DNA of 64,000 nucleotides from a virus, in the IMG/VR virus record IMGVR_UViG_3300045988_180880, positions 96,001 through 160,000 of that record. One strand, 5' to 3'. This document shows positions 2,903-50,539 of the stretch, in pieces. The notes under the pieces were generated by a model. It was not told the origin of the DNA. It searched no databases and saw nothing but the letters and a program-made list of their open reading frames with translations. The position numbers and the translations under genes were made by a program. Numbering within the stretch: the first letter of the stretch is position 1; every line of letters begins with the position of its first letter.

Positions 2903-4384
2903 TTATTTTTGCTCTTGTTGTTTGTAATATTCTTCAAGTTTATCAGGATATTTTTCTTTAAAGTCTGAAAATTTAAACCAATATGAATTATTATATAAGG
3001 ATTCAGTATTTAATTTTTTATCTTTATTTAAGATTCTCCATACATTCTGGTGAAATAACCCATCTTCTCTAACATTTCCAATACTTTTATATATTTTTAT
3101 AATCTCATGATTCCGATTAGTTCTTATTATTTCATTTCTAAATAACTTAACAACTAACTTTGGTAAATTATTTGTTTCTTTATTAAGATAGTATTCATCT
3201 AATTTATCTGGATATTCCCATTCATCTAGGCTAGTCCAATAATAATCAAAGTATTTACCTATAGCAGAATAAGATGTCCTTGTTTTATTACGATTTACTG
3301 CAGCAGATACTGAAGATTCAGAAAATCCATCTTTTATAACATCTTTTACTGAATCATAGATTTTATATATTAAATAGTCTTTATCATGACAAATAATCTT
3401 TTTACTTCTCTTAGTTTCTCTAGGAATATATTTTATTATATTAGAAATTGCTCCTTTTTCATAAAATTTTTGAATACTATTCGAATATAAATTAATAGCA
3501 TCGTTGTAATACATCCAGTAATATTCTCCATATAATGTTTTATTCTCTATACTCCTTCTAAGATACTCTGGATTAAATCCATCTATTTTAATAGAGGATA
3601 TTGTATTATATATTTTACAAACATTGAAGTTTTTATCAAAACATACTATCTTTGTTCCGGAATCATTATATTCTAATACAGTATTTCTTTCTAAAGGTGT
3701 TAAATTTAATTTTGGTAGATCTTTTAATGAATAAAATTCATTTAATTTTTCTGGATAATTAATTTTAAAATCTTCTAATAAAGAAAATTTATATCCTCTA
3801 GAAGTATTGTAATCTCCTTTTACAGTACTACTAACAGAAGTGTGATTAAAACCATCCATTTCAGTTTCTGAAATACTACTATATACTCTATAAACTTTAT
3901 TATTTAAATCATGACAAACAACAGGATATGAGATAGAACGTATATATTTTTCTCTTAACTCAGCAGAAAGGGTAATATTATATTTCTCTATTACTAATTT
4001 TCGCTCGGATGTATATACTGAATTTACATTAATCATACAAAATAGAGCAGATAATATTTTATTATTATCTGATTGAATTCTATATAATAAAACGTGTGCT
4101 ATTATATGTTCTAAAGCAGAAAGAAGTACGTAATTATAGTTCTCATCTTCACCTGACATACACCTAGGTAAAATATGATGTTTCTCTGTATAAAATTCGA
4201 TTTTTCCTCGTTTTAATCCTCTCTGAAGGGCTTGATCTATTAATTTACAGTAATCTTCTAGATATTCCTCTTCAGTTCTCCCATCTAGAATCATCTCATT
4301 AAAATCTTTTTCATCTAGGTAACTACTATACTTCATCCCTGGATTTTCGATAGATTTTATACCTTCTATTGGTTTAGATTTCAT
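2903..4384 (-). CDS. free-standing HNH homing endonuclease with four C-terminal DNA-binding repeats
   Basis: HNH core is EKHHILPRCMSGEDENYNYVLLSALEHIIAH. It is followed by four copies of a roughly 35-aa module (V/I-CHD..N..-YRVY.S..E...DGF....VS..V), like the NUMOD-type modules of phage HEGs. The gene has its own promoter and a long leader. Confidence 0.8.
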   Translation of the reverse strand: MKSKPIEGIKSIENPGMKYSSYLDEKDFNEMILDGRTEEEYLEDYCKLIDQALQRGLKRGKIEFYTEKHHILPRCMSGEDENYNYVLLSALEHIIAHVLLYRIQSDNNKILSALFCMINVNSVYTSERKLVIEKYNITLSAELREKYIRSISYPVVCHDLNNKVYRVYSSISETEMDGFNHTSVSSTVKGDYNTSRGYKFSLLEDFKINYPEKLNEFYSLKDLPKLNLTPLERNTVLEYNDSGTKIVCFDKNFNVCKIYNTISSIKIDGFNPEYLRRSIENKTLYGEYYWMYYNDAINLYSNSIQKFYEKGAISNIIKYIPRETKRSKKIICHDKDYLIYKIYDSVKDVIKDGFSESSVSAAVNRNKTRTSYSAIGKYFDYYWTSLDEWEYPDKLDEYYLNKETNNLPKLVVKLFRNEIIRTNRNHEIIKIYKSIGNVREDGLFHQNVWRILNKDKKLNTESLYNNSYWFKFSDFKEKYPDKLEEYYKQQEQK

Positions 4385-15767: not shown

Positions 15768-15787
15768 CCTTGAGATTCTTATATATG
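15768..15787 (+). promoter_or_regulatory. promoter-like motif CCTTGAGATTCTTATATATG
   Basis: An identical 20-mer lies at 38717..38736 and a near-identical one at 18850..18869, each 20-50 nt upstream of a start codon. Confidence 0.55.
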
Positions 15788-19889: not shown

Positions 19890-20816
19890 ATGAACAGAAA
19901 TAAAAAAGCGTTAGTTATCTTTCATAGGGTAGATTTTGATGGAACATCCAGTATGTGTATAGCAGTAAAATCACTATACGATGAAGGGTACCAAGTAGAT
20001 AAAACCGGATATAATTATGGAGATGAAATTCCAGAAATGTATGTAGATAAGAATGGAAGACCCTATGACCTGATCTGTATGGTTGATATAAGTTTCCCTC
20101 CTGAAATTATGTTACAGGTTTGGGAACACTATGGAGATAACTTTATATTCATAGATCATCATGTATCATCCATCGAAAGTTCTATACAAAATAACTACAC
20201 CGGAATTAAAGGTATTCGTGAGATTGGACCAGCTGCTTGTGAATTAACTTGGAGATTTTTCTGTCCAGGTCAAGATATTCCAGAATTTATTCGACTTCTT
20301 GGAGTATATGATACTTGGAGAAAAGATGAAGTTGGAGAGGATGATTGGCAAGATGTAATACTTCCTTTACAGAGTGGTTTGAAATTTAAATATGGCTTAA
20401 ATCCTGATACGTGGCTCTATGAATTTCCTAATCTATGTTTCTGGGAAGATAGATTGACAGAAGTAATAGAACTTGGAACTATTCTTAAACAAAATCAGGA
20501 TAAAATTAATAAAGGAGTAGTTAAATCATTCTCATTTCCCGTTACTGTTGCTGGAAAATATAGAGGAGTTTGTGTAATAGGAACTGCATTTTCAAGTACA
20601 GTCTTTAATTCTGTCTTAAATGATTATGATATTTATATAGTATGTAATCGAAGAGATAAAGGAGTATATAGTATATCAATGTATAAAGAACCTGATCGAA
20701 TTCCAGAATTTAGTTGTGCTGGATATAGAGGCATTATTTTTGGACATAAAAGTGCTGGAGGTGGTACTTTAAACTTTGAACAATTCAAGACTTTAATAGA
20801 GGATTGTGAAATTTAA
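19890..20816 (+). CDS. DHH-DHHA1 family phosphoesterase (NrnA/RecJ-like nano-RNase or phosphodiesterase)
   Basis: DHH motifs: IFHRVDFDGTSS (I), MVDISFPP (II), FIFIDHHVSS (III, DHH). DHHA1-type motif FGHKSAGGG near the C-terminus. Confidence 0.75.
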   Translation: MNRNKKALVIFHRVDFDGTSSMCIAVKSLYDEGYQVDKTGYNYGDEIPEMYVDKNGRPYDLICMVDISFPPEIMLQVWEHYGDNFIFIDHHVSSIESSIQNNYTGIKGIREIGPAACELTWRFFCPGQDIPEFIRLLGVYDTWRKDEVGEDDWQDVILPLQSGLKFKYGLNPDTWLYEFPNLCFWEDRLTEVIELGTILKQNQDKINKGVVKSFSFPVTVAGKYRGVCVIGTAFSSTVFNSVLNDYDIYIVCNRRDKGVYSISMYKEPDRIPEFSCAGYRGIIFGHKSAGGGTLNFEQFKTLIEDCEI

Positions 20817-20826
20817 AACTTATAAG

Positions 20827-20851
20827 AACCAAGGATTTTATTTCCTTGGTT
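20827..20851 (+). terminator. intrinsic terminator hairpin
   Basis: aaccaagga-ttttatt-tccttggtt followed by tcttttttc. Confidence 0.65.
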
Positions 20852-20877
20852 TCTTTTTTCTTGATACATTTTTATGA

Positions 20878-21160
20878 GGACTAAGGAACCCTTTATCATA
20901 CCTTCCGTTCACCACTAAAGGGTTCACTCCAGGGCCCTACGGGCTCTAGATTGAATAAACTATATAGGGAATAAATAGATTATAAGAATTCGATCTCCTC
21001 CCAAAGGGAGATCGAATATATTAAGTGGAACTTTTTTAATCGAAAATAGATTTACTTTATATATGGTCAAATATGTCCTATTTAAATGACAATTTTGCGC
21101 TTCTACTAACTTTAAATCCTTACAATTGAATGAAGATTATAAAGGGTATCCCTAGTCTTC
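20878..21160 (+). other. non-coding, hairpin-rich element bounded by inverted repeats (copy L), upstream of the helicase-like gene
   Basis: 5' ggactaaggaaccc (20878..20891) against 3' gggtatccctagtc (21144..21157). Internal hairpins lie at 20887..20924, 20931..20947 and 20989..21016. Homologous to 50034..50512 on the opposite strand. Confidence 0.6.
21093..21132 (+). promoter_or_regulatory. promoter (TTTTGCG ... TTACAATTGAATG) of helicase-like gene L
   Basis: ttttgcgcttctactaactttaaatccttacaattgaatg aligns with the R-copy sequence ttttgctcttctattaacctcaaattctaattaatg and with the TTTTTGCG promoter class. Confidence 0.45.
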
Positions 21161-21232
21161 GATTTTATGTAACTGGATTCTGTATTAAAAAGAATCTATA
21201 AATAATAAATTAATTAAAAACTTTATAAAATT

Positions 21233-23260
21233 ATGACTAAAGATAAAATTATTGTACCTAGAGGAATTAGGTATATAGGAGAGTGGAAAGATTTCTGCTT
21301 TTCTAATTTTCTAAGTAAATGTATTATTAATAAACAATTACCTGGATGTGGTTTTACTGAATACTGTATTAATGGTCCTGAGAATGTAATACTTTGTTCT
21401 CCTAGAAAAATGCTTTTAAAGAATAAATATGATCAACATAAAAATGATATTTATTTAGTAATTAATGAGATGGATAAAGATCCAGATGTGGATAAGGATA
21501 TTAGTAAGGATATTAAAAATCCTAATTTAGATGAAGATTATCAAGAAAAGAAAGATAATTCTGAGATCTATGAAAGATTATATAGAGAAATTGATACTTA
21601 TACCTATCAAAGATATCTAAATAATCAACCAGCTAAGATTCTAGTAACATATGATTCATATAGAATCGTTAAAGATATTCTTGAAAAAATTAGAATATTT
21701 GATAGGTTTATGACTATAGTAGATGAGTTTCAGAGTATTTTACACGATTCTAGATTTAAAAGCAATACTGAAATGGGATTTTTGGAATATCTTAAACAAT
21801 CCCCAACAGCATACTTTGTATCAGCTACTCCTATGATGGATGAATATCTAGAAATGTTAGATGAATTTAAGGATCTCCCATATTATGAATTAGATTGGTA
21901 TAGTTCAGATTCTAGTAGAGTAATCAAACCTTCATTAAAAGTACTTACAATGAAATCAGTAGGTACAAAAGCAGAAGAAGTAATTCAATCCTATCTATCA
22001 GGAGATTTTGAAGAAGTTGTTGTTCTTAGAGATAGTGTACCTACTAGAGTAATATCAGACGAAGCAGTATTTTATGTAAACAGTGTTAATCATATTATAT
22101 CTATCATCAAGAAAAATGAATTAACTCCAGAACAATGTAATATATTATGTAGCAATACTCCAGAAAATCTAAAGAGAATACAAAAGAAATTAGGAAAAGG
22201 TTTTACTATAGGAGAAGTACCTCTTAAAGGAGTTAAACCTAGGATGTTTACCTTTTGTACTAGAACGGTTTACTTAGGAGCAGATTTTTATAGTTTATGT
22301 GCACGTAGTTTTATATTCTCAGATTCTAATTCAGACTGTTTAGCAGTTGATATTGCAGAAGATCTTCCACAGATACTAGGTAGACAAAGGTTGTTTAGTA
22401 ATCCTTGGAACAATTCAGCAACTTTTTATTATCGTACTACAGCAGATTATAGAGAAATGAAAGAGTCTGATTTTCAGAAAATTTTAAATAAGAAAACAGA
22501 AACTACAGAAAACTTATTATCAGTATATAATAAAGGAACTGATGAAGAAAGATATGATTTAGCGAAAAATTATTTATATGTAGCTAAGTCAGCAAGTTAT
22601 AAAGATAATTATGTAGCAGTAAATAAAATAATTACCAGTACAGGTAATATTATTTTAAAACCTGTTATTAATCAGCTTGTAAAAGTTAATGAGATTCGAG
22701 CATTTAAAATTCAGCAAATTGATTATAAAGATAGATTTAGTGTATTTAGTAGTGTACACTCTAAACTTACTCCTGATGATATAGTAAATAGGGATGTAAC
22801 TAGATTTTTCTGTATTTATGATACTTATACTACAATTCATGATAAACTTAAAATGTTATGTGAATATCCTGTTTCTAGAGAAGTGATAGATATAGTTCTT
22901 GGACAAATAGCAGATTCTGATGAAGTTAAGTCTTATTATCTGTCATTAGGTCCTACTAAACTTAAAGCGTTATCATACAATTCTCATAAAATAAAGAAAG
23001 AGCTTGGAATAGTAACATTTAGTCCAGAATTACTTAATAATACAATTCATCAAAACTTTAATCCAGGAGAGAAATATACACTATCTAATCTTAAAGCAAA
23101 ACTAGGAGATTTATATTCTAGTATTTCTTATACTGCAGTGCCAAAAGCTAATGATATTTTAAATTACTTTGAGGTAAAAGAATATAAATCTACTGAGGTT
23201 GTAGATGGGGAAAAGAAAAGAGTAAGAGGATATGAACTATTAAAAAGAAAGGATAATTAA
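21233..23260 (+). CDS. SF2 helicase-like protein with atypical motif I and a C-terminal domain shared with the next gene (paralog L)
   Basis: Motifs: QLPGCGFTEY (motif I position, no Lys), IVDEFQS (II), VSATPM (III), FCTRTVYLGADF (V), QILGRQRL (VI). About 70% aa identity by eye to 47922..49964. Confidence 0.7.
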   Translation: MTKDKIIVPRGIRYIGEWKDFCFSNFLSKCIINKQLPGCGFTEYCINGPENVILCSPRKMLLKNKYDQHKNDIYLVINEMDKDPDVDKDISKDIKNPNLDEDYQEKKDNSEIYERLYREIDTYTYQRYLNNQPAKILVTYDSYRIVKDILEKIRIFDRFMTIVDEFQSILHDSRFKSNTEMGFLEYLKQSPTAYFVSATPMMDEYLEMLDEFKDLPYYELDWYSSDSSRVIKPSLKVLTMKSVGTKAEEVIQSYLSGDFEEVVVLRDSVPTRVISDEAVFYVNSVNHIISIIKKNELTPEQCNILCSNTPENLKRIQKKLGKGFTIGEVPLKGVKPRMFTFCTRTVYLGADFYSLCARSFIFSDSNSDCLAVDIAEDLPQILGRQRLFSNPWNNSATFYYRTTADYREMKESDFQKILNKKTETTENLLSVYNKGTDEERYDLAKNYLYVAKSASYKDNYVAVNKIITSTGNIILKPVINQLVKVNEIRAFKIQQIDYKDRFSVFSSVHSKLTPDDIVNRDVTRFFCIYDTYTTIHDKLKMLCEYPVSREVIDIVLGQIADSDEVKSYYLSLGPTKLKALSYNSHKIKKELGIVTFSPELLNNTIHQNFNPGEKYTLSNLKAKLGDLYSSISYTAVPKANDILNYFEVKEYKSTEVVDGEKKRVRGYELLKRKDN

Positions 23261-23262
23261 TT

Positions 23263-24294
23263 ATGATATATTTGATTAAGAGTGCAGGTTATGATGAGAA
23301 TGAAAATTTAATTCATCTTCTCAAAATAGGTTATACAGAGGATAATAATAGAGATAGAAGATTTATGTCTTACAAACTTCATAATCCTACTTGTAAAATT
23401 TTATATGAAATTCCCAGTCTTTCAGAAGATATAGAAAAGAGAATTCAATATAAGTTTAGAGATTATAAGTATAAAGAATATGGAAATGAGTGGTTTTATT
23501 ATAATGATGATGTAATAAATTTCTTTAGGGATATAGATAAAGTAGATTTGGAATCTCTTCCAAAGTCTCCTATGAGTGAAAAGAGGGATTATAAGAGATT
23601 TAGAAAAATGGTTAAAGAATTTGTTCCTTGGATTATTGCTGATATAAAGGATAGAAATGAATATGTAAAGAAGATAATAGATGAATTAGGTAGTAATTTA
23701 AATTCTATTCAGGATATATTAGATTATGTGATAAAGGATTACGGAGAGGATTCTATCTCTAAGTATCTTGAAGTTACTAAGAAAAAAGAGATGAAAGTGT
23801 ATAGTGAAGATTCAAAGATTAATAGTGAAATAATAAAGTTTATTAATACTTATGAAACTCTTACTACTATCTATGATAAACTTAAAATGTTATGTGAATA
23901 TCCAGTCTCTAAGGAAGTTATTCAGATAGTATTAGATCAAATAGCAGATAGTGATGAGATTAAGTCTTATTATTTGCTTTTAGGTCCTGATAGGTTGAAA
24001 AAATTACATTATAATATTACAAATATTAGAAGAGAATTAGGTATTGTAACCTTTAGTCCTGAATTATTAAATAATACTATTCATCAAAATTTTAATCCAG
24101 GTGAGAAGTATACATTAGCTAATTTAAAGGCTAAACTTGGAGATCTATACTCTTCTATTTCTTATACTGCAGTTCCTAAGGCCAATGATATTTTAGAGTA
24201 TTTCGAAGTAAAAGAGGTTCAAAATACTATGTTAGTAGATGGAGTAAAGAAGCGAATTCGTAGTTATGAATTATTAAAAAGAAAGGATAATTAA
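23263..24294 (+). CDS. T5orf172 (GIY-YIG-related) domain protein carrying the same C-terminal domain as the helicase-like protein
   Basis: N-terminus IYLIKSAG...LLKIGYTEDNNRDRRF...NEWFYYN matches the T5orf172 pattern. The last roughly 150 aa (TTIYDKLKMLCEYPVSKEVIQIVLDQIADSDE...YELLKRKDN) nearly repeat the C-terminus of 21233..23260. Confidence 0.7.
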   Translation: MIYLIKSAGYDENENLIHLLKIGYTEDNNRDRRFMSYKLHNPTCKILYEIPSLSEDIEKRIQYKFRDYKYKEYGNEWFYYNDDVINFFRDIDKVDLESLPKSPMSEKRDYKRFRKMVKEFVPWIIADIKDRNEYVKKIIDELGSNLNSIQDILDYVIKDYGEDSISKYLEVTKKKEMKVYSEDSKINSEIIKFINTYETLTTIYDKLKMLCEYPVSKEVIQIVLDQIADSDEIKSYYLLLGPDRLKKLHYNITNIRRELGIVTFSPELLNNTIHQNFNPGEKYTLANLKAKLGDLYSSISYTAVPKANDILEYFEVKEVQNTMLVDGVKKRIRSYELLKRKDN

Positions 24295-27099: not shown

Positions 27100-30000
27100 T
27101 TATTTAAAGCTTACAACTGGGAACTTAGCCGCGTCATAAGATAAACAGTAATCACCTTCTGGACCAGCTACAGCATCTTGACATACCATAACTACTTGAC
27201 TTTCATTTTTAGTGCCACAAACTGAAGCAGGATCAGCTGGATTAATCTTTACTCCAGCATGAACTAAATTATTAAAGTTAACAGTAATCTTACCGTCACC
27301 AAACAAGTTATTAGCATTAACCTCTTCTTCAGTCTTATTAGTATAATCTTCGCAAATCAAGAAACCTTGCCATGGAGCTCTAGTTTCCCATTGATCTACA
27401 GTACAGTTATTAATATTAACAACTACACCAGAAGCATTAGACTTATTACTTAATCTAAGAGTATTACTGATCTTTTCGAAATAACAGTTATTCAATGTAA
27501 TAATAGCATTGTCTTGAGTACCGAATACTAAGATAGCATTATTACTGAATTCACCTTGGAATTTACAATTATCGAACAAGATATTTTTCGGAAGTACAGA
27601 ATTGCTTGCTAGACCAATCTCAATACCGTTATAAACTTCAGATGCATCAAATACCATATCTTTGAATACGATAAATTCAGCATTATTTACGCTTATTACA
27701 GTATTTCCATTAGCTTTCGGGAATGAACCTGAAATATTTAGATCTTTGGCTTCTACATCACCAGCATTCAATTTAAGTCTAGCATTATCACTTACTTTAA
27801 TTGATTTTAATGAGATAGACTTACCAACGATTTCAGCATTTTCATTAATAGATCCTGATACGATATAATCCTTAGAAGAATCTTTCAATTCACCAGCAGA
27901 ACCGTCAACACTTACAACTTCAGTATTTGTTTTAGTAAGAACATCAACTTTACTTTGAAGAATTTGAACTGTTGCATTCAAAGCTTCAAGAGTATTGCTA
28001 AGACCAGCTACATCTTCTAAGTATGCAATTTTATGAGCTTCTTCTCCTAATTGACCAGCTTCTTGTACAGTTGGACGTACATCTTTCGGAGTATTGATAT
28101 TAATCGGAGAAACAGGAGTACCAAGATCTACTATTCCCCAACGATTAAGTTGAACAAGATTATTTCCTCCGCCCAATAACATATCACCCTTAGCTAACTC
28201 AACAGCTTTACGATTAGGTAATTGTTCAGAAGGAATATCTTTATATTTTACCTGTCCTTCAATCTCCTCTTTTGTTGCATATGGGGTTAAATCTACGGGA
28301 GGAATAGCAGCAATAGCTTCTTTAATCTTACCATCTACTTGAGCTTCATTTTGGAAACCTAGATCGTTTTCAAGTTCAGATACTTTAGTAGGAACATTAC
28401 CGATCTTTTCTTCAAGTTCAGAAACTTTAGTATCAGTAGCACTCATATAAGCTTCAAGATCAGATTGAGATGCCTTAAGATTAATATTATCTTGAAGTTC
28501 GGCTGCTTTAGTTTCTAAATCTTCTGAAAGAGCAATTCCTTTAGAACCATTAAATAGAGGACGAGGTTCAGATCCAACTAAGTTAAGATCCATACCAGCA
28601 GAACCAACCTCTACTTTATCATCAGCACTTACTTTTGCCAGGTTAAATCCAGCAACACCTTCTGCATTAACACCACTCAAAGAATCACCATTAGCAAGTT
28701 CGATAGTCTTAGAACCATCTTCGAGAACTTTATAAGAAATCAATCCTTCTTTTGCAGCTTCAATATCTTCGGTAAGAGCAATTTCCTTAGTATCATTATA
28801 AGTAGGACGATCTGCAGAACCATTAAGATTCAATTCAACCCCAGGAGCACCAAAATCAGCTTTATCCCATTTAGACAACATTACTAGATTATGACCTTCT
28901 CCCTTAGTATCGATACCAGAAATATTGTCATAATTAGAAAGTTGAATTGTTTTACGACCTTCACCAAATTCTTGATACTTAACAACACCTTCAAGATCAG
29001 CAGAAATACCATCAACCTTTTCAGTAATAGCATCAACAGCAATCTTATCAGCCTTAGAATCAAGACCTTCGTTAACTGTAGCAAAACGATTATCAACACT
29101 TTCTGCATCAGCCTTAGTAGCTAATTGTTCAGTAATCGCATCAACTGCTATCTTATCCGCTTTTTGATCAAGTGCTGAATTTATATTTTCTACTGCACTA
29201 TCAACATCTGCCTTATCAGCTTTAGTTTCAAGAGCAGCCTTAACTTCTTCTATCTGTGCCGAACTAGATTCAACATCACTCAGGTACGCAATCTTATGAG
29301 CTTCTTCACCAGACTGACCTGCTTCTTGTACAGTTGGACGTACATCTTTCGGAGTATTGATATTAAATGGGACGCTAGAAGAACCAAAATCAGCTACACC
29401 CCAACGATTAAGCTGAACGAGACTAGATGTACCACCTTCTAAGTTACCACCTAAAATAACATCACCATTCTTAAGAACAATAGCTTTACGTTCTGGGAGA
29501 TTAGAGTCAGCTACATCTTCATATTTAACAGCTTTCTTATTAATAGCATCGATAGAAGAAGCAAGATTTTCATTAACTGTTACTAGGTTAGCAGCAACTT
29601 CTTGAACATTCTTCTTAATTTCATTGATACCTTCTACTTTAATACCTGCTTCAGATACACTCAAGTAAGATTCACTGGAAGGATCTAATTTAATAGAGAA
29701 TCCATTTTCAATCAATTCAATACCATTACCAGCTACGTAAGTATCAACCAAAGAGCTAAGATCAACTACTGAAGTTTGTTCTCCTTCAGAAGTGTTAAAT
29801 ACAAAGGTCAATGATTTATCTTCTGCAGAGTACTCAACAGATTTCAAGAATTGGTCTGCAGGAATATTAATAGTACCAGCAATTTTATCACCTACTTGAA
29901 GTTCATAAGTTAAGTCATCTTTCTTAACTAATGCAATAGTTTCCATATTGCCATGAACATCTTCAAGAAGGGCAATTTGTTTGGAATCGTTATAAGTAGG

Positions 30001-30741
30001 TCTTTCAGCAGAACCGTTTAAGTTGATTTCTACTGAACTAGAACCTAGATCTACTTTATTCCACTTAGAAACCATAGCAATATTCACAGCACTACCATCA
30101 GTAGTTTTTCCGCAAATATTATCATGATTGTTTAGGAAAATAGTCTTACGTCCAGGATTTTGTTCAGTTGCTGTATCTTCATATTTAACAGCTTTTTCAA
30201 GTTCTGGACGTATCTCATTATTGAGTCCTCCGTTTATGGTGCTGAAACCGTCTGCAACATTCTTATTGATATTATTAACAGCTTCAACAAGATTATTGTT
30301 TACAGTTGCAATATCAGCTGCATTTTTTTCAATTTTTCCTTCAAGTTCAGTGAGATCAGCACCTTCACCGTTTACTTTTTCAGCTAATTCATCAATAGCT
30401 GCTTGAAGTTTAGCATCGCCTTCTTCACGATTAGTTACTTCAGCTGCAATACCATTATTAATAGTTTCGATAGCCTGAACAAGATTATTATTCAGAGTTT
30501 CGATAGAAGAAGCTACATTTTCGTTGATTTGATTTACCATTCCATCAACACGAGAAGCTTCTGATTCAATTTTTTCAGATAACTTAGCGTCACCTTCTTC
30601 ACGGGCACTAGCTTCTTCAGTTACCTTATTTTCTAGAGCAGAGAGTTGTTCTTGGATATCACCTGGAACTTCTCCACCACCTGTAGACGCGATATCGTAT
30701 ACAACTCCGTCAACACTAATCTTAGAGATTTTTTCGCTCAT
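27100..30741 (-). CDS. tail fibre / receptor-binding protein (coiled coil + five ~80-aa repeats + C-terminal beta-helix)
   Basis: 1213 aa. The N-terminus has coiled-coil repeats (EEGDAKL twice). Five copies of VKY(E/K)D...RK(T/A)I.L.N.D...L...(W).K(V/A)D(L/F)G...V..N(L/I)N(G/T)...RPT... follow. The C-terminus has NxxF/NNC-rich beta-helix-like repeats (ILFDNCKF, ITLNNCYF, VVNINNCTV). Confidence 0.8.
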   Translation of the reverse strand: MSEKISKISVDGVVYDIASTGGGEVPGDIQEQLSALENKVTEEASAREEGDAKLSEKIESEASRVDGMVNQINENVASSIETLNNNLVQAIETINNGIAAEVTNREEGDAKLQAAIDELAEKVNGEGADLTELEGKIEKNAADIATVNNNLVEAVNNINKNVADGFSTINGGLNNEIRPELEKAVKYEDTATEQNPGRKTIFLNNHDNICGKTTDGSAVNIAMVSKWNKVDLGSSSVEINLNGSAERPTYNDSKQIALLEDVHGNMETIALVKKDDLTYELQVGDKIAGTINIPADQFLKSVEYSAEDKSLTFVFNTSEGEQTSVVDLSSLVDTYVAGNGIELIENGFSIKLDPSSESYLSVSEAGIKVEGINEIKKNVQEVAANLVTVNENLASSIDAINKKAVKYEDVADSNLPERKAIVLKNGDVILGGNLEGGTSSLVQLNRWGVADFGSSSVPFNINTPKDVRPTVQEAGQSGEEAHKIAYLSDVESSSAQIEEVKAALETKADKADVDSAVENINSALDQKADKIAVDAITEQLATKADAESVDNRFATVNEGLDSKADKIAVDAITEKVDGISADLEGVVKYQEFGEGRKTIQLSNYDNISGIDTKGEGHNLVMLSKWDKADFGAPGVELNLNGSADRPTYNDTKEIALTEDIEAAKEGLISYKVLEDGSKTIELANGDSLSGVNAEGVAGFNLAKVSADDKVEVGSAGMDLNLVGSEPRPLFNGSKGIALSEDLETKAAELQDNINLKASQSDLEAYMSATDTKVSELEEKIGNVPTKVSELENDLGFQNEAQVDGKIKEAIAAIPPVDLTPYATKEEIEGQVKYKDIPSEQLPNRKAVELAKGDMLLGGGNNLVQLNRWGIVDLGTPVSPININTPKDVRPTVQEAGQLGEEAHKIAYLEDVAGLSNTLEALNATVQILQSKVDVLTKTNTEVVSVDGSAGELKDSSKDYIVSGSINENAEIVGKSISLKSIKVSDNARLKLNAGDVEAKDLNISGSFPKANGNTVISVNNAEFIVFKDMVFDASEVYNGIEIGLASNSVLPKNILFDNCKFQGEFSNNAILVFGTQDNAIITLNNCYFEKISNTLRLSNKSNASGVVVNINNCTVDQWETRAPWQGFLICEDYTNKTEEEVNANNLFGDGKITVNFNNLVHAGVKINPADPASVCGTKNESQVVMVCQDAVAGPEGDYCLSYDAAKFPVVSFK
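28021..28160 (-). repeat. intragenic direct repeat in the tail fibre gene (partner 29284..29423)
   Basis: About 140 bp at roughly 90% identity by eye. It includes an identical run, cttcttgtacagttggacgtacatctttcggagtattgatatta. Confidence 0.75.
29284..29423 (-). repeat. intragenic direct repeat in the tail fibre gene (partner 28021..28160)
   Basis: See partner. Encodes ...PTVQEAGQ(S/L)GEEAHKIAYL(S/E)DV. Confidence 0.75.
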
Positions 30742-46333: not shown

Positions 46334-46738
46334 TTATAAGAGTTTCTCGCCTTCTACAGTTATGGTCCTATGTTTCTTTTGTAGTTCGTCAAGTAATTTT
46401 CTTTTTAGTGTTCCAGGGAGAGGAATTTGTGGAAACAGCAACGTCTCACTTCTATGTTTCCAAAGCCACTCATCTATCTCTTCGAAGGATTGCTCAAAGA
46501 CTTCAAAAACTGGTTGCTCATCATAAAACCATTCATCTAAGAATTCAACTTTAAAATCATATAGTCTAAGGTGAAGTCTAAGTTCGTCTAATTCTGAACC
46601 CTCTCGTGTAGATATTATTTCTCCAAGAGGATTATGAAGACGATATTGATTTTTTCGTTTTTCTAAGTCTCCGGTATATCCAATTTTTACAACCTTCCTT
46701 ATTCCTTTCCATGCGCCAGATCCAAATAAATATAACAT
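46334..46738 (-). CDS. T5orf172 (GIY-YIG-related) domain protein (module R)
   Basis: MLYLFGSGAW...VVKIGYTGDLEKRKNQY...LDEWFYDE matches the T5orf172 pattern. It lacks the long C-terminal domain of 23263..24294. Confidence 0.65.
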   Translation of the reverse strand: MLYLFGSGAWKGIRKVVKIGYTGDLEKRKNQYRLHNPLGEIISTREGSELDELRLHLRLYDFKVEFLDEWFYDEQPVFEVFEQSFEEIDEWLWKHRSETLLFPQIPLPGTLKRKLLDELQKKHRTITVEGEKLL

Positions 46739-47921: not shown

Positions 47922-49964
47922 TTAACACACCTCCTTTCTACTTAATAGTTCATAACCCTTTGTTTGTTTCTTTTTTCCAGTAGTCTCATCTAAAATAGAT
48001 ATATAAATTAATTTAACCTCAAAATAACTTTCTAAATCTTTTGCTTTAGGGGTTTTATCATAATTAATACTAGAATACAAATATCCTAACTTATCTTTTA
48101 TTCCAGATAATATTAATTTATCCCCTACTTTAAATTCATTATAGATAGTAGCTTCTAATAATTCATCTGAAAAAGTAATTATTCCTAAAGCTTTTTTTAT
48201 TTTAGTAATATGATAACCCATACCCTTTAATCTTTGAGGACCCAATGTAATATAGTAAGATTTAACCTCATCTGAATCAGATATCTGCCCTAATACTATA
48301 TCAATAGCGTCTTCAGACAAACCATATTCACAAATAAGTTTTAATTTATCATACATAGTAGTTAAACTAGTATATACCTTTAAAAAATTTGATACCTCCT
48401 GATTCACTATATCATCTCTGGTTAACATATTATGTACCGTACTAAACACTGTAAATCTATCTTTATAGTCTATCTGTTGTATTTTAAAAGCTCTAATCTC
48501 ATTTACTAGTACTAGATTATTAGGAACTGGTTTAAGAATAATATTTCCTTCAGAAGTATGAATCTTATTTACTGCTACATAATCATCCTTATAATTAGAA
48601 GCTTTGGCATCTTTCTGATACTTCTTAGCTAATGCAAATTTATCTTTTATAGAAATAGCAATATTATAAGTTCTTAATAAACTTTCTGTCATTTCTTGTT
48701 TAGTTTTTATTATTTTCTGAAAATCTTCAGCCTTCATTTCTCTATAATTAGCAGTAGATCTATAATAAAAAGTGGCTGAATTTTTCCAAGGATTATCAAA
48801 TAATCTTTGCCTTCCTAATATCTGGGGCAAATCTTCTGATATATCTACAGCCAAGGAATCTATATTACTATCACTGAATATAAATGATCTAGCACATAAA
48901 CTATAAAAGTCAGCTCCAAGATATACAGTTCTTGTACAAAAAGTAAACATTTTAGGTTTTACTCCCTTTAACGGTACTTCACCTATCTTAAAAGACTTAC
49001 CTAACCTCCTTTGAATTTTCTTTAAATTATCTTCTGTGTATGAACATAAGATATTACATTGCTCTGAGGTAAGATTATTCTTTTTAATGATAGATGTAAT
49101 ATGATTAACACTATTAACATAGAATACAGCCTCATCTGATACTACTCTAGTAGGAATTCCATTTCTAAGAACTACTATACTTTCAAACTCTCCTGAAAGA
49201 TACTTTTGAATTACTTCAGAAGCTTTTTCACCAACAGATCTCATTACAAAGACATCTAAATCTGGTTGAATAACTCTACTAGGATCCGCAGATCCCCAAT
49301 CTAATTCATAATATGGGAGATCCTTAAATTCATCTAACATTTCTAAATATTCATCCATCATAGGAGTTGCACTAACAAAGTATGCTGTTGGAGATTGTTT
49401 AAGATATTCTAGAAATTTTAATTCAGTATCACTCTTAAATCTAGAATCATGAAGAATACTTTGAAATTCATCTACTATTGTATAAAATGTATAAAATCTA
49501 TCTAATTTCTCTAGGATATCTTTTACTATTCTATATGAATCATAAGTAACAAGGATTTTACAAGGTAATCCATTAATACTCCTAGATATACAGTATTCCT
49601 CTATTTCTCTATATAATCTTTTATAGATATCTGAATTATCTAATGATTCTGAATCAATTGATAAGTCTGCTAAAATATTTTTATCAATCTTAGATAAGTC
49701 TTTATCAATATTAGACTCCTTATCCATTTCATTTACGACCAGATAAACATCAAATTCATGTTGATCCTTTTTATTCTTAAGTAGCATCTTTCTGGGACTA
49801 CATAAAATAATATTTTCATTACTCCTAATACAATATTCAGTAAAACCACATCCAGGTAATTGTTTATTAATAATACATTTACTTGGAAATTTATTAAAAT
49901 TAAATTCATTCCATTCTGAAATAAATCTAATTCCAGATGGTACTATTATCTTCTCTCTAATCAT
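47922..49964 (-). CDS. SF2 helicase-like protein with atypical motif I (paralog R)
   Basis: Same motifs as 21233..23260 (QLPGCGFTEY, IVDEFQS, VSATPM, QILGRQRL). The C-terminal domain is more diverged. Confidence 0.7.
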   Translation of the reverse strand: MIREKIIVPSGIRFISEWNEFNFNKFPSKCIINKQLPGCGFTEYCIRSNENIILCSPRKMLLKNKKDQHEFDVYLVVNEMDKESNIDKDLSKIDKNILADLSIDSESLDNSDIYKRLYREIEEYCISRSINGLPCKILVTYDSYRIVKDILEKLDRFYTFYTIVDEFQSILHDSRFKSDTELKFLEYLKQSPTAYFVSATPMMDEYLEMLDEFKDLPYYELDWGSADPSRVIQPDLDVFVMRSVGEKASEVIQKYLSGEFESIVVLRNGIPTRVVSDEAVFYVNSVNHITSIIKKNNLTSEQCNILCSYTEDNLKKIQRRLGKSFKIGEVPLKGVKPKMFTFCTRTVYLGADFYSLCARSFIFSDSNIDSLAVDISEDLPQILGRQRLFDNPWKNSATFYYRSTANYREMKAEDFQKIIKTKQEMTESLLRTYNIAISIKDKFALAKKYQKDAKASNYKDDYVAVNKIHTSEGNIILKPVPNNLVLVNEIRAFKIQQIDYKDRFTVFSTVHNMLTRDDIVNQEVSNFLKVYTSLTTMYDKLKLICEYGLSEDAIDIVLGQISDSDEVKSYYITLGPQRLKGMGYHITKIKKALGIITFSDELLEATIYNEFKVGDKLILSGIKDKLGYLYSSINYDKTPKAKDLESYFEVKLIYISILDETTGKKKQTKGYELLSRKEVC

Positions 49965-50033
49965 ATTTAAATTATATTTTTATTGTTACAAAATAATATT
50001 TAAACTCAATACAGAGTTCAGTTAGTTAAAATT

Positions 50034-50512
50034 GAAGACTAAGGATACCCTTAACTTCATTAATTAGAATTTGAGGTTAATAGAAGAGCAAAATACAACT
50101 TTACTAATACATTTTCACCTACATGTAGTATATAAATTTAATTCGGATAGAAAAGTTGTAGTGGTTCTTCTATAAGAGCGAACATAGTGAGAGACTCACC
50201 TCCCGAAGGGAGGAGGTGATGTCGTCTCTTATAGGAGGTTCACGATAAATAGAAAATAATAGATTAATTATTATATATCTATTATATGGAAATGAACCTT
50301 AAAAGAGTACCGTCCACCCGCTCCCTGTAAGGGGAGCGAGGACTCTCACTAACGTTCGTACTTTTTAAGAACCATTAAATAATTATATTTTCTATTCAAT
50401 TCTAACTAATATTTATTTAATTCTTTTTTATTCTCTATATATCTTTTCAGTTTCTTGAAGGCCCGAATGAACATAGTGAATGAAGGATATAGATTCTGGT
50501 ATCCCTAGTCTT
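50034..50512 (-). other. non-coding, hairpin-rich element bounded by inverted repeats (copy R), upstream of the helicase-like gene
   Basis: gaagactaaggataccc (50034..50050) against ggtatccctagtctt (50498..50512). A long-range helix joins 50162..50193 with 50343..50374 and encloses hairpins at 50196..50219 and 50319..50338. Confidence 0.6.
50058..50095 (-). promoter_or_regulatory. promoter of helicase-like gene R
   Basis: The reverse complement reads attttgctcttctattaacctcaaattctaattaatg, homologous to 21093..21132. Confidence 0.45.
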
Positions 50513-50539
50513 TGAAAAAATATTACAAAAAATATAAAA

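Follow-up and report, generated by a model that had tools for sequence, protein, structure and literature searches.

What does a gene-free, palindrome-rich segment in front of a phage helicase gene do, and does it act as DNA or as RNA? The question is raised by a 283-bp segment (20878-21160) in a 64,000-nucleotide stretch of viral DNA (positions 96,001 to 160,000 of IMG/VR record IMGVR_UViG_3300045988_180880; hereafter the window). This segment belongs to one copy of a repeated cassette, consisting of a palindromic element (here the segment itself) and a superfamily 2 (SF2) helicase gene, that is carried by jumbo phages of ~370 kb. The element is clearly functional, and the evidence favours a cis element working at the level of DNA over a strand-specific RNA. 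Our tentative reading is that the element is a cis-acting DNA region, a replication-origin-like site for binding of an initiator, which also holds the promoter of the helicase gene. A literature search found no description of the cassette, and both the helicase family and its upstream element appear to be undescribed.

The first copy of the element (copy L) fills the gap between a DHH phosphoesterase gene (19890-20816) and a 675-amino-acid (aa) open reading frame (ORF; 21233-23260). The initial annotation had described the segment as ORF-free, closed by inverted outer repeats and furnished with three hairpins. Reading the window sequence, we found the repeats (ggactaaggaaccc at 20878 and gggtatccctagtc at 21144) and all three hairpins in place, and no ORF longer than 36 aa overlaps 20817-21232. 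The features of copy L and the genes that follow it are:

20826-20862, + strand: intrinsic terminator of the DHH phosphoesterase gene, just outside the element (terminator scan)
20876-20896, + strand: 5' outer arm, the 5' strand of the outer pairing (P1), GAGGACTAAGGAACCCTTTAT, with a core, GARGACWARGGA, kept in all copies
20887-20924, + strand: hairpin A1, aacccttt...aaagggtt, competing with P1 for the inner half of the 5' arm
20931-20947, + strand: hairpin A2, agggccc-tac-gggctct, with one G-T pair (sequence and fold)
20951-20975, + strand: Box 1, TTGAATAAACTATATAGGGAATAAA, unique in the window with 0 expected by chance (aligned copies)
20988-21017, + strand: GC hairpin C, att-cgatctcc-tcccaaag-ggagatcg-aat, 11 perfect pairs, core 20991-21014
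21032-21086, unstranded: T-run, AT-rich spacer and TTTAAA at the position of stem D, which is degenerate in this copy
21093-21135, + strand: Box 2, TTTTGCGCTTCTACTAACTTTAAATCCTTACAATTGAATGAAG, conserved
21139-21160, + strand: 3' outer arm, the 3' strand of P1, ATAAAGGGTATCCCTAGTCTTC (pairing and conservation)
21170-21197, + strand: leader motif TAACTGGATTCTGTATT plus a small hairpin, GGATTCT/AGAATCT, 3' of the element and 5' of the start codon
21233-23260, + strand: helicase-like gene L, 675 aa, SF2 core and C-terminal domain
23263-24294, + strand: T5orf172 nuclease-like domain fused to a second helicase C-terminal domain, the latter 61% identical to aa 454-675 of helicase L

P1 comprises ~21 pairs (20876-20896 with 21139-21160), interrupted by one mismatch and one bulge, with a calculated RNA duplex energy of -27.2 kcal/mol. 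Competition between A1 and this outer pairing, which had been proposed from the start, is real because the 5' half of A1 also belongs to the outer pairing, and the same type of alternative pairing occurs in another subfamily (CTTCCCTTA/TAAGGAAG). The sequence TCACTCCRGG just 5' of A2 recurs in relatives at 45% aa identity, and Box 1 appears in distant copies as TTGAAT... Stem D is an inverted repeat of 7-11 bp around ~47 nt of AT-rich DNA that can be written X-T-run ... AAA-X'; in copy L the AT-rich spacer contains CTTTATATATG at 21055-21065. The arm sequences and Box 1 are present within the window only at its two helicase genes.

The second of these genes lies 29 kb away and carries its own copy of the element (copy R):

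50498-50513, - strand: 5' outer arm, AAAGACTAGGGATACC
50196-50219, - strand: homolog of hairpin C, tcacctcc-tcccttcg-ggaggtga, three compensated stem changes relative to copy L
50094-50160, - strand: stem D, in which TACAACTTT (50160-50152) pairs with AAAGTTGTA (50102-50094) around an AT-rich spacer
50055-50093, - strand: Box 2, with promoter-like CTAATTAATG at 50067-50058, one mismatch from the consensus given below
50034-50050, - strand: 3' outer arm, GGGTATCCTTAGTCTTC
50008-50024, - strand: leader motif TAACTGAACTCTGTATT
47922-49964, - strand: helicase-like gene R, 680 aa, 70% aa identity to L

DNA similarity between copies L and R begins only at Box 2 (21092); 5' of Box 2 the two share architecture alone. 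The three compensated changes in the stem of hairpin C are exactly those that had been claimed for this pair of copies. A further claim, that the loop keeps tccc...g, failed: some strains (loci L010/L012) have the reverse complement, ctttggga.

The same architecture recurs in the helicase family, in front of more than 60 distinct copies or alleles of the gene. A search of IMG/VR recovered at least 156 protein relatives of helicase L. The best 80 of the 156, which we took as loci, are 61-100% identical to it and come from contigs no longer than 378 kb, with several on the same contig. Further helicase copies were obtained with a second query and a leader-motif scan, and a protein collection yielded thousands of family members, some from contigs as long as 433 kb; clustering at the 50% level leaves 1,496 representatives. 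No close DNA relative of the window was found among GenBank phages. In the window's lineage, all of the distinct upstream regions (59/59) carry the element, with 64-98 nt between the end of the 3' arm and the start codon. The elements form a short class (277-300 nt, plus a single 371-nt type) that includes L and a long class (444-526 nt) that includes R and has an extra branched domain of ~190 nt at the position of hairpin C. The shared order is a GTAAC flank with 8-9 T-rich nt, the 5' arm (core GARGACWARGGA), hairpin A, Box 1 (family form TTGAATAAGATATATAGGRAATAAA), hairpin C, stem D, Box 2 (TTTTGCGCTTCTAMTAACTTTAAATCCTTA..TGAA), the 3' arm and the leader (TTTTATGTAACTGGATTCTGTATTA). The stems of hairpin A vary by subfamily and stay paired (ACACCCCT/AGGGGTGT, ACACCTCT/AGAGGTGT and ATCCCCTC/GAGGGGAT). 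In some loci (L028, L041, L053, L073, L079, L087, L093 and L103) a third copy of the arm lies just 3' of the element and pairs with the 3' arm. GTAAC stands 8-9 nt outside both arms in direct orientation (GTAAC-N8-GAGGAC ... GTCTTC-N8-GTAAC; 20862-20875 and 21161-21173 in the window, and equivalents elsewhere), and the T-rich 9-mers between GTAAC and the arms are similar on the two sides.

The cassette is also multicopy, at 5-10 copies per genome in this group of jumbo phages. Relatives at 40-57% aa identity on other ~370-kb contigs keep the arms, the hairpins, a Box 2-like block and the hairpin between the 3' arm and the third copy. Two single contigs in GTDB (371 and 376 kb, catalogued under Mycoplasmatota and Bacilli metagenome-assembled genomes) carry 5 and 9 copies at this level of identity; these contigs, CASEGV010000001.1 and JAGAYY010000025.1 (loci L082-L097 and L103), are probably jumbo phage genomes binned as bacteria. 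When copies in both contigs were detected with family-wide motifs, the 9 copies in JAGAYY010000025.1 proved to be evenly spaced (coefficient of variation 0.21, P = 3e-5 against uniform placement), as did the 5 copies in CASEGV010000001.1 (coefficient of variation 0.14, P = 8e-4). In the window's lineage, where detection relied on query-specific peptides and was non-exhaustive, we mapped at least 6 copies per ~370-kb contig at intervals of ~25-74 kb. Bacteroidales genomes hold single helicase copies at 26-34% identity. A homolog at 28% identity in this order has a GCAAC-T7...A6-GTTGC repeat within its 370-nt upstream gap, and its neighbours are a D12 methylase, BT4734-like_N and DUF5131.

Whether the element works as DNA or RNA was approached through its folding and its pattern of sequence change. 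Folded as RNA, copy L (20870-21165) has a minimum free energy (MFE) of -85.2 kcal/mol, compared with -57.2 +/- 4.6 kcal/mol for 200 dinucleotide shuffles (z = -6.1, 0/200), and copy R reaches -147.4 kcal/mol against -94.6 kcal/mol in its shuffles (z = -9.8). With DNA parameters, copy L gives z = -3.4 on either strand. The outer helix forms in 38/38 distinct arm pairs, drawn from 59 distinct elements, at -15 to -33 kcal/mol, and on an unfitted MAFFT alignment 95.7% of P1 cells pair versus 37-57% with a slid partner. In the P1 core, 8 of the 13 pairs are invariant and only 4 show double changes. Across the 38 arm pairs there are 787 Watson-Crick pairs, 51 mismatches of the G-T type, 26 of the A-C type and 85 transversion mismatches, and P1 contains mismatches that are fixed, as well as a bulge. 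P1 thus has the look of two conserved sites, whereas the internal stems look like pure structure. The early suggestion that the outer repeats are protein-binding sites flanking a promoter fits this conservation of the core.

For the internal stems a different test was needed, since RNAalifold on the MAFFT alignment recovered only the outer helix because the alignment leaves the internal stems out of register. We therefore compared cognate with non-cognate pairing partners without an alignment. Cognate halves of stem D, of which there are at least 23 distinct 3' versions, pair at -6.7 kcal/mol versus -3.5 kcal/mol for non-cognate halves (Mann-Whitney p = 9e-12), with 291 Watson-Crick pairs and 0 G-T pairs in the sense strand. 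Hairpins A and C occur in 28 distinct strong versions with no fewer than 7 Watson-Crick pairs apiece, for a total of 223 Watson-Crick and 0 G-T or A-C pairs. The structure of the internal helices is under selection: with many compensated variants and better cognate pairing, the initial proposal of selection for structure rather than sequence is borne out for the internal hairpins.

The manner in which these helices change points to DNA. Among their 514 pairs there is no G-U or G-T pair, the sole G-T being that in the weak hairpin A2 of copy L. If G-U is assumed to make up 5% of the pairs in an RNA helix, as we estimate, zero in ~500 pairs would be very unlikely for an RNA. The sense strand folds better than the antisense strand in 32 of the 59 elements, and P1 is likewise without strand asymmetry. 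Loops are inverted between otherwise identical hairpins (tcccaaag vs ctttggga, ctcaa vs ttgag). Such inversions, found between strains at window 20999-21006 and in L010/L012, L057/L060 and L141/L159, extend to the ordinary terminator of the DHH gene, and small palindrome-mediated inversions seem to be common in these genomes. We attribute the two-sided stem changes and flipped loops to palindrome processes at the DNA level, likely intrastrand templated correction and recombination between the arms, an explanation that leans on established quasi-palindrome mutagenesis.

The initial annotation had left the element as either a structured RNA or a DNA hairpin or operator, and these data leave the DNA half of that statement standing and the RNA half weakened. 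The Rfam scan named there as a check gave 0 matches at gathering threshold over the whole window and no family match even at E <= 10; the best E values over the two element regions (0.41 and 1.6) came with less than half the gathering score and on unrelated parts. A scan of the window for tRNA and tmRNA found none. In a test for intrinsic terminators (GC hairpin plus T-run) on both strands, the three internal hairpins failed and only the upstream 20826-20852 qualified. Hairpin promoters of the N4 type have a 5-7-bp stem, a 3-nt loop and conserved bases; here the stems are 7-11 bp and the loops 4-15 nt, of variable and even inverted sequence. What the evidence favours is a DNA-level element made of conserved inverted arms as candidate binding sites, an AT-rich spacer, palindromes that would fold when single-stranded and a promoter at the 3' edge.

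The protein encoded next to this DNA is an SF2 helicase by fold. Sequence searches of Pfam, PHROGs, NCBIfam and PDB with the helicase returned nothing. In an alignment of 56 diverse members, the SF2 motifs DEFQ, SATP and QILGRQR are invariant. An AlphaFold 2 model built from this 56-sequence alignment reached a mean confidence (pLDDT) of 88, compared with 36 for a single-sequence model. Against PDB, the fold search returned generic SF2 helicases (BLM, Brr2, RecQ1 and Hel308; E ~1e-8). Against predicted viral structures, it returned an unnamed protein (1e-35) and then a generically named giant-virus SF2 helicase (1e-14). The best named viral neighbours are "replication origin-binding protein" helicases of giant viruses and herpesviruses (E 7e-14 to 6e-8, template modelling score ~0.3-0.4). 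The C-terminal 220 aa behaves, to judge from the sequences, as a separable module, and the ORF downstream of helicase L carries a second version of it. Fusions of this domain to T5orf172 (GIY-YIG-like) follow the helicase in many other cassettes (L031-L038, L053/54, L067 and L070/71). An intron or intein, considered for helicase matches of "3 kb", was ruled out: these matches are the helicase plus the downstream fusion ORF. Another T5orf172-like ORF, a short one, is present in the R module (46334-46738, - strand).

The reading that we tentatively favour, an origin-like initiator-binding site with an adjacent initiator gene, is the best supported because no other reading accounts at once for the fold neighbours, the anatomy of the element, its DNA-type signature, the presence of many copies and their even spacing. 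We infer a sequence of binding, unwinding, origin activity and autoregulation along the following lines. The helicase, with its N-terminal SF2 motor and C-terminal domain, would recognise the conserved inverted arms (GARGACWARGGA... / ...TCCYTWGTCTTC) and, in some copies, the third arm copy downstream. Binding to both arms would bring them together and stress the AT-rich spacer, and once the DNA was unwound the perfect internal palindromes (hairpins A and C and stem D) could fold within the separated strands. At the 3' edge the arm overlaps the promoter-like motif, which would tie expression of the helicase to occupancy of the site.

The closest parallel in anatomy is the origin OriS of herpes simplex virus (HSV) with its origin-binding protein (OBP, UL9), and here we see a resemblance rather than demonstrated homology. 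In HSV-1, OBP joins an SF2 helicase to a C-terminal domain for DNA binding and dimerisation, and OriS consists of inverted boxes around an AT-rich spacer, with a third inverted box that folds into a hairpin upon unwinding (PMC12543377). The phage protein similarly combines an SF2 helicase with an extra C-terminal domain, and its best named viral fold neighbours, as judged from the predicted model, are origin-binding helicases. The phage element, in its anatomy, has inverted arms in all copies, an AT-rich spacer and a third inverted arm able to form a hairpin. The two systems differ in that the phage helicase lacks sequence similarity to OBP and has a motif I without lysine; in that the phage element measures 280-520 bp with several extra GC hairpins, whereas OriS measures ~80 bp; and in that it is fused to the helicase promoter and recurs 5-10 times in a genome, every copy having a paralog of its own.

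Other origins share single features with the element. Yeast mitochondrial ori/rep sequences are ~270 bp long, occur in seven or eight copies per genome and have a phage-type promoter directly adjacent (PMC5726470). The phage element is comparable in length, copy number and adjacent promoter. The two are unrelated in sequence, however, the yeast ori has no paired initiator gene, and the GC blocks of the phage element are self-complementary hairpins in a unit bracketed by conserved inverted arms. As in iteron replicons, where the origin lies beside an autoregulated rep gene, the candidate initiator gene adjoins the site and inverted repeats overlap its promoter. The phage T4 origins oriF and oriG combine a promoter with a downstream AT-rich unwinding element (PMC3016281), and the element likewise has an AT-rich region beside its promoter. 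Unlike iteron and T4 origins, it lacks a clear array of direct repeats (Box 2 and the 3' arm are only weakly similar in direct orientation) and is multicopy, and its protein is an SF2 helicase rather than a Rep or winged-helix initiator.

Several observations weigh against an origin-binding role. Motif I reads KxxxPGCGFTE (K-QLP-GCGFTE, residues 34-43) without the usual Walker-A lysine: all family members have F at the position after the second glycine, where this lysine is expected, and K34 never varies. Such a P-loop is unusual among SF2 proteins, and because the lysine is missing, ATPase activity is uncertain. The helicase has no sequence-level match to any solved structure among PDB chains, HSV OBP included, and does not match Pfam Herpes_ori_bp; SF2 cores, moreover, resemble one another anyway. 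Arm sequences vary together with the nearby N-terminal portion of the gene, as would be expected from linkage alone, and not with the C-terminal domain. Among the copies detected in the window's lineage, one interval is as wide as 139-159 kb. The picture at gene junctions is mixed: divergent junctions account for only about half of the cassettes, and the downstream genes are mostly co-oriented with the helicase. GC skew shows no switch at the elements, and it is uninformative as an origin signal because it tracks the coding strand. Finally, we know of no precedent in phage for 5-10 origins that each have their own initiator paralog.

Extended to whole genomes, the origin-like reading would mean that the ~370-kb genomes of this jumbo phage group are copied from many origins, tens of kb from one another and each served by its own UL9-like SF2 initiator paralog, and that the cassettes are swapped between strains. 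We regard this as possible but doubtful. If true, it would be a multi-origin arrangement with dedicated initiators of the kind seen in eukaryotes or archaea. How huge phages replicate genomes of several hundred kb is largely uncharted, and the cassette, with its 5-10 copies per genome, their even spacing in two genomes and its conservation across distant lineages, is a concrete candidate for multi-origin replication in a bacterial virus.

Could the element act as RNA after all? Transcribed from a promoter at the 5' arm, it would form a 350-600-nt leader of the helicase mRNA or a separate non-coding RNA. The consensus CTTATWWATG has 15 exact matches in the window, nearly all of them 15-60 nt 5' of start codons and in gene orientation, which suggests from sequence context a phage-specific promoter with its start site at the 3' end of the motif. 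Examples are found at 15778, 18860, 26206, 32242, 38224, 38727, 41501, 51750 and 62841 (+ strand) and at 2738, 14958, 15745 and 51680 (- strand), and the motif is often preceded by GCC or TTC. The exact consensus (CTTATTTATG) ends precisely at the 5' arm in 14 of the 31 distinct 5' flanks, and therefore the whole element could be a leader in those copies; a transcript carrying both arms is possible wherever the consensus abuts the 5' arm. Neither copy L (cattttTATG) nor copy R has the consensus at this position, and both are preceded by terminator-type hairpins.

An RNA would also account for the strong z-scores with RNA parameters and for P1 closing the MFE fold in every copy folded. The alternative pairings of both arms are kept across subfamilies and distant relatives, the leader 3' of the element has small hairpins that include G-U pairs, and the transition mismatches in P1 lean to the sense strand (51 of the G-U type vs 26 of the A-C type, counts that are non-independent). 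The general plan recalls riboswitch and T-box leaders, in which a long-range P1 closes a multi-branched fold 5' of a gene and the 3' strand of P1 has a local alternative partner. Unlike such leaders, the element matches no known family, is hypervariable inside in both sequence and length, and shows neither internal G-U pairs nor strand asymmetry. That no G-U appears despite rapid sequence turnover, that folding is as strong on the antisense strand as on the sense strand, that inverted loops are tolerated and that P1 is kept by sequence rather than by covariation all argue against an RNA, which we consider rather unlikely. We hold the same view of its more detailed form, in which P1 closes a multi-branched fold and the 3' arm switches between the 5' arm and the third copy, thereby controlling expression. 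If the element is an RNA instead, it would be a new, large and widespread structured RNA tied to an unannotated helicase family with ~1,500 cluster representatives.

A weaker copy of the promoter consensus lies within Box 2, just 5' of the 3' arm, in agreement with the initial proposal of a promoter inside the element. It has one mismatch in copy R and most subfamilies and two in copy L, where the 3' half of Box 2 (CTTACAATTG at 21119-21128) resembles the consensus. Conserved inverted arms thus bracket a promoter-like motif, with the 3' arm immediately 3' of it, and in several subfamilies a local palindrome, made by the 3' arm and the third copy, directly follows the promoter. This arrangement, together with the confinement of the arm sequences to the two helicase loci of the window, would also suit a plain operator. 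In such a scheme the arms, and the third copy where present, would bind a repressor or activator, perhaps the helicase itself, and loop the DNA around the helicase promoter with no role in replication. We think it unlikely that this is the whole function. An operator leaves unexplained why the internal hairpins and stem D change in sequence and yet remain perfectly complementary, why an architecture of 280-520 bp is conserved across 28-57% protein divergence and why the copies are evenly spaced. Separately, the leader motif in the form AACTGRAYTCTGTATT (21170-21186 and 50008-50024) is also found 5' of unrelated promoters in related phages, without a helicase (L212, L196, L176, L218 and L230), and resembles the coding sequence of GFTEYCI, helicase motif I, within the helicase gene itself (21354-21370).

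Cassettes do exchange between strains. At one locus, a 100%-identical DHH gene upstream is followed by helicase alleles that are 100, 79 or 63% identical to L (strains, L141-L160), and flank types and element types occur in all combinations. L156 has an orphan element, then a repeated DHH terminator and then a second cassette, and in L159, which is rearranged, the cassette is lost except for a Box 2 remnant. These observations, the T5orf172 fusion ORF that accompanies many cassettes and the T-rich 9-mers and GTAAC that flank both arms could be explained if the arms and flanks were crossover or target sites for cassette exchange, duplication and spread, for example by gene conversion driven by a homing endonuclease or by insertion in the manner of a miniature inverted-repeat transposable element (MITE). 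However, the position of the element is fixed relative to the helicase, the sole copy away from a helicase being the L156 recombinant; neither an empty site nor an inverted orientation was found; no recombinase or transposase adjoins the element; and the flanking 9-mers are not exact duplications. The exchange can also be explained by ordinary homologous recombination between paralogs. A recombination or mobility module is thus quite improbable, and we judge as poorly the related idea that the palindromes are self-maintaining "selfish" DNA. A MITE or other transposon with terminal inverted repeats gained no support: the arms resemble such repeats, but the 9-mers are only similar, the window has no copies at unrelated sites and no empty site was found. 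An inverton, which likewise has inverted repeats flanking a promoter-bearing segment of a few hundred bp, was ruled out since 2.9 million viral contigs contain no example of the inverted junction, all 59 distinct copies (59/59) are co-oriented and no invertase or other recombinase gene is among the neighbours.

Distant homologs of the helicase occur in cultured phages, namely Psychrobacter phage D'Alembert, Acinetobacter phage Phab24 and Edwardsiella phage ET-ABTNL-9, in which genetics is feasible. The region upstream of the D'Alembert homolog, DAL_143, contains no recognisable element and only a shared 12-mer. The sequence TATATAGTGTAT occurs twice (L081:2237-2261 and 2338-2362) in the 1.35-kb non-coding gap 5' of DAL_143, a gap that adjoins the terminal repeat of this phage; its 12-mer is also found in the AT-rich spacers (stem-D loops) of L028 and L032 and may be there by chance in AT-rich DNA.

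Elsewhere in the window, three ORFs on the - strand stand out: a 1213-aa ORF with internal repeats of 48-179 nt (27100-30741), an HNH homing-endonuclease-like ORF (2903-4384) and a phage GroEL (822-2441) that is 39% identical to homologs from Bacteroides phages.

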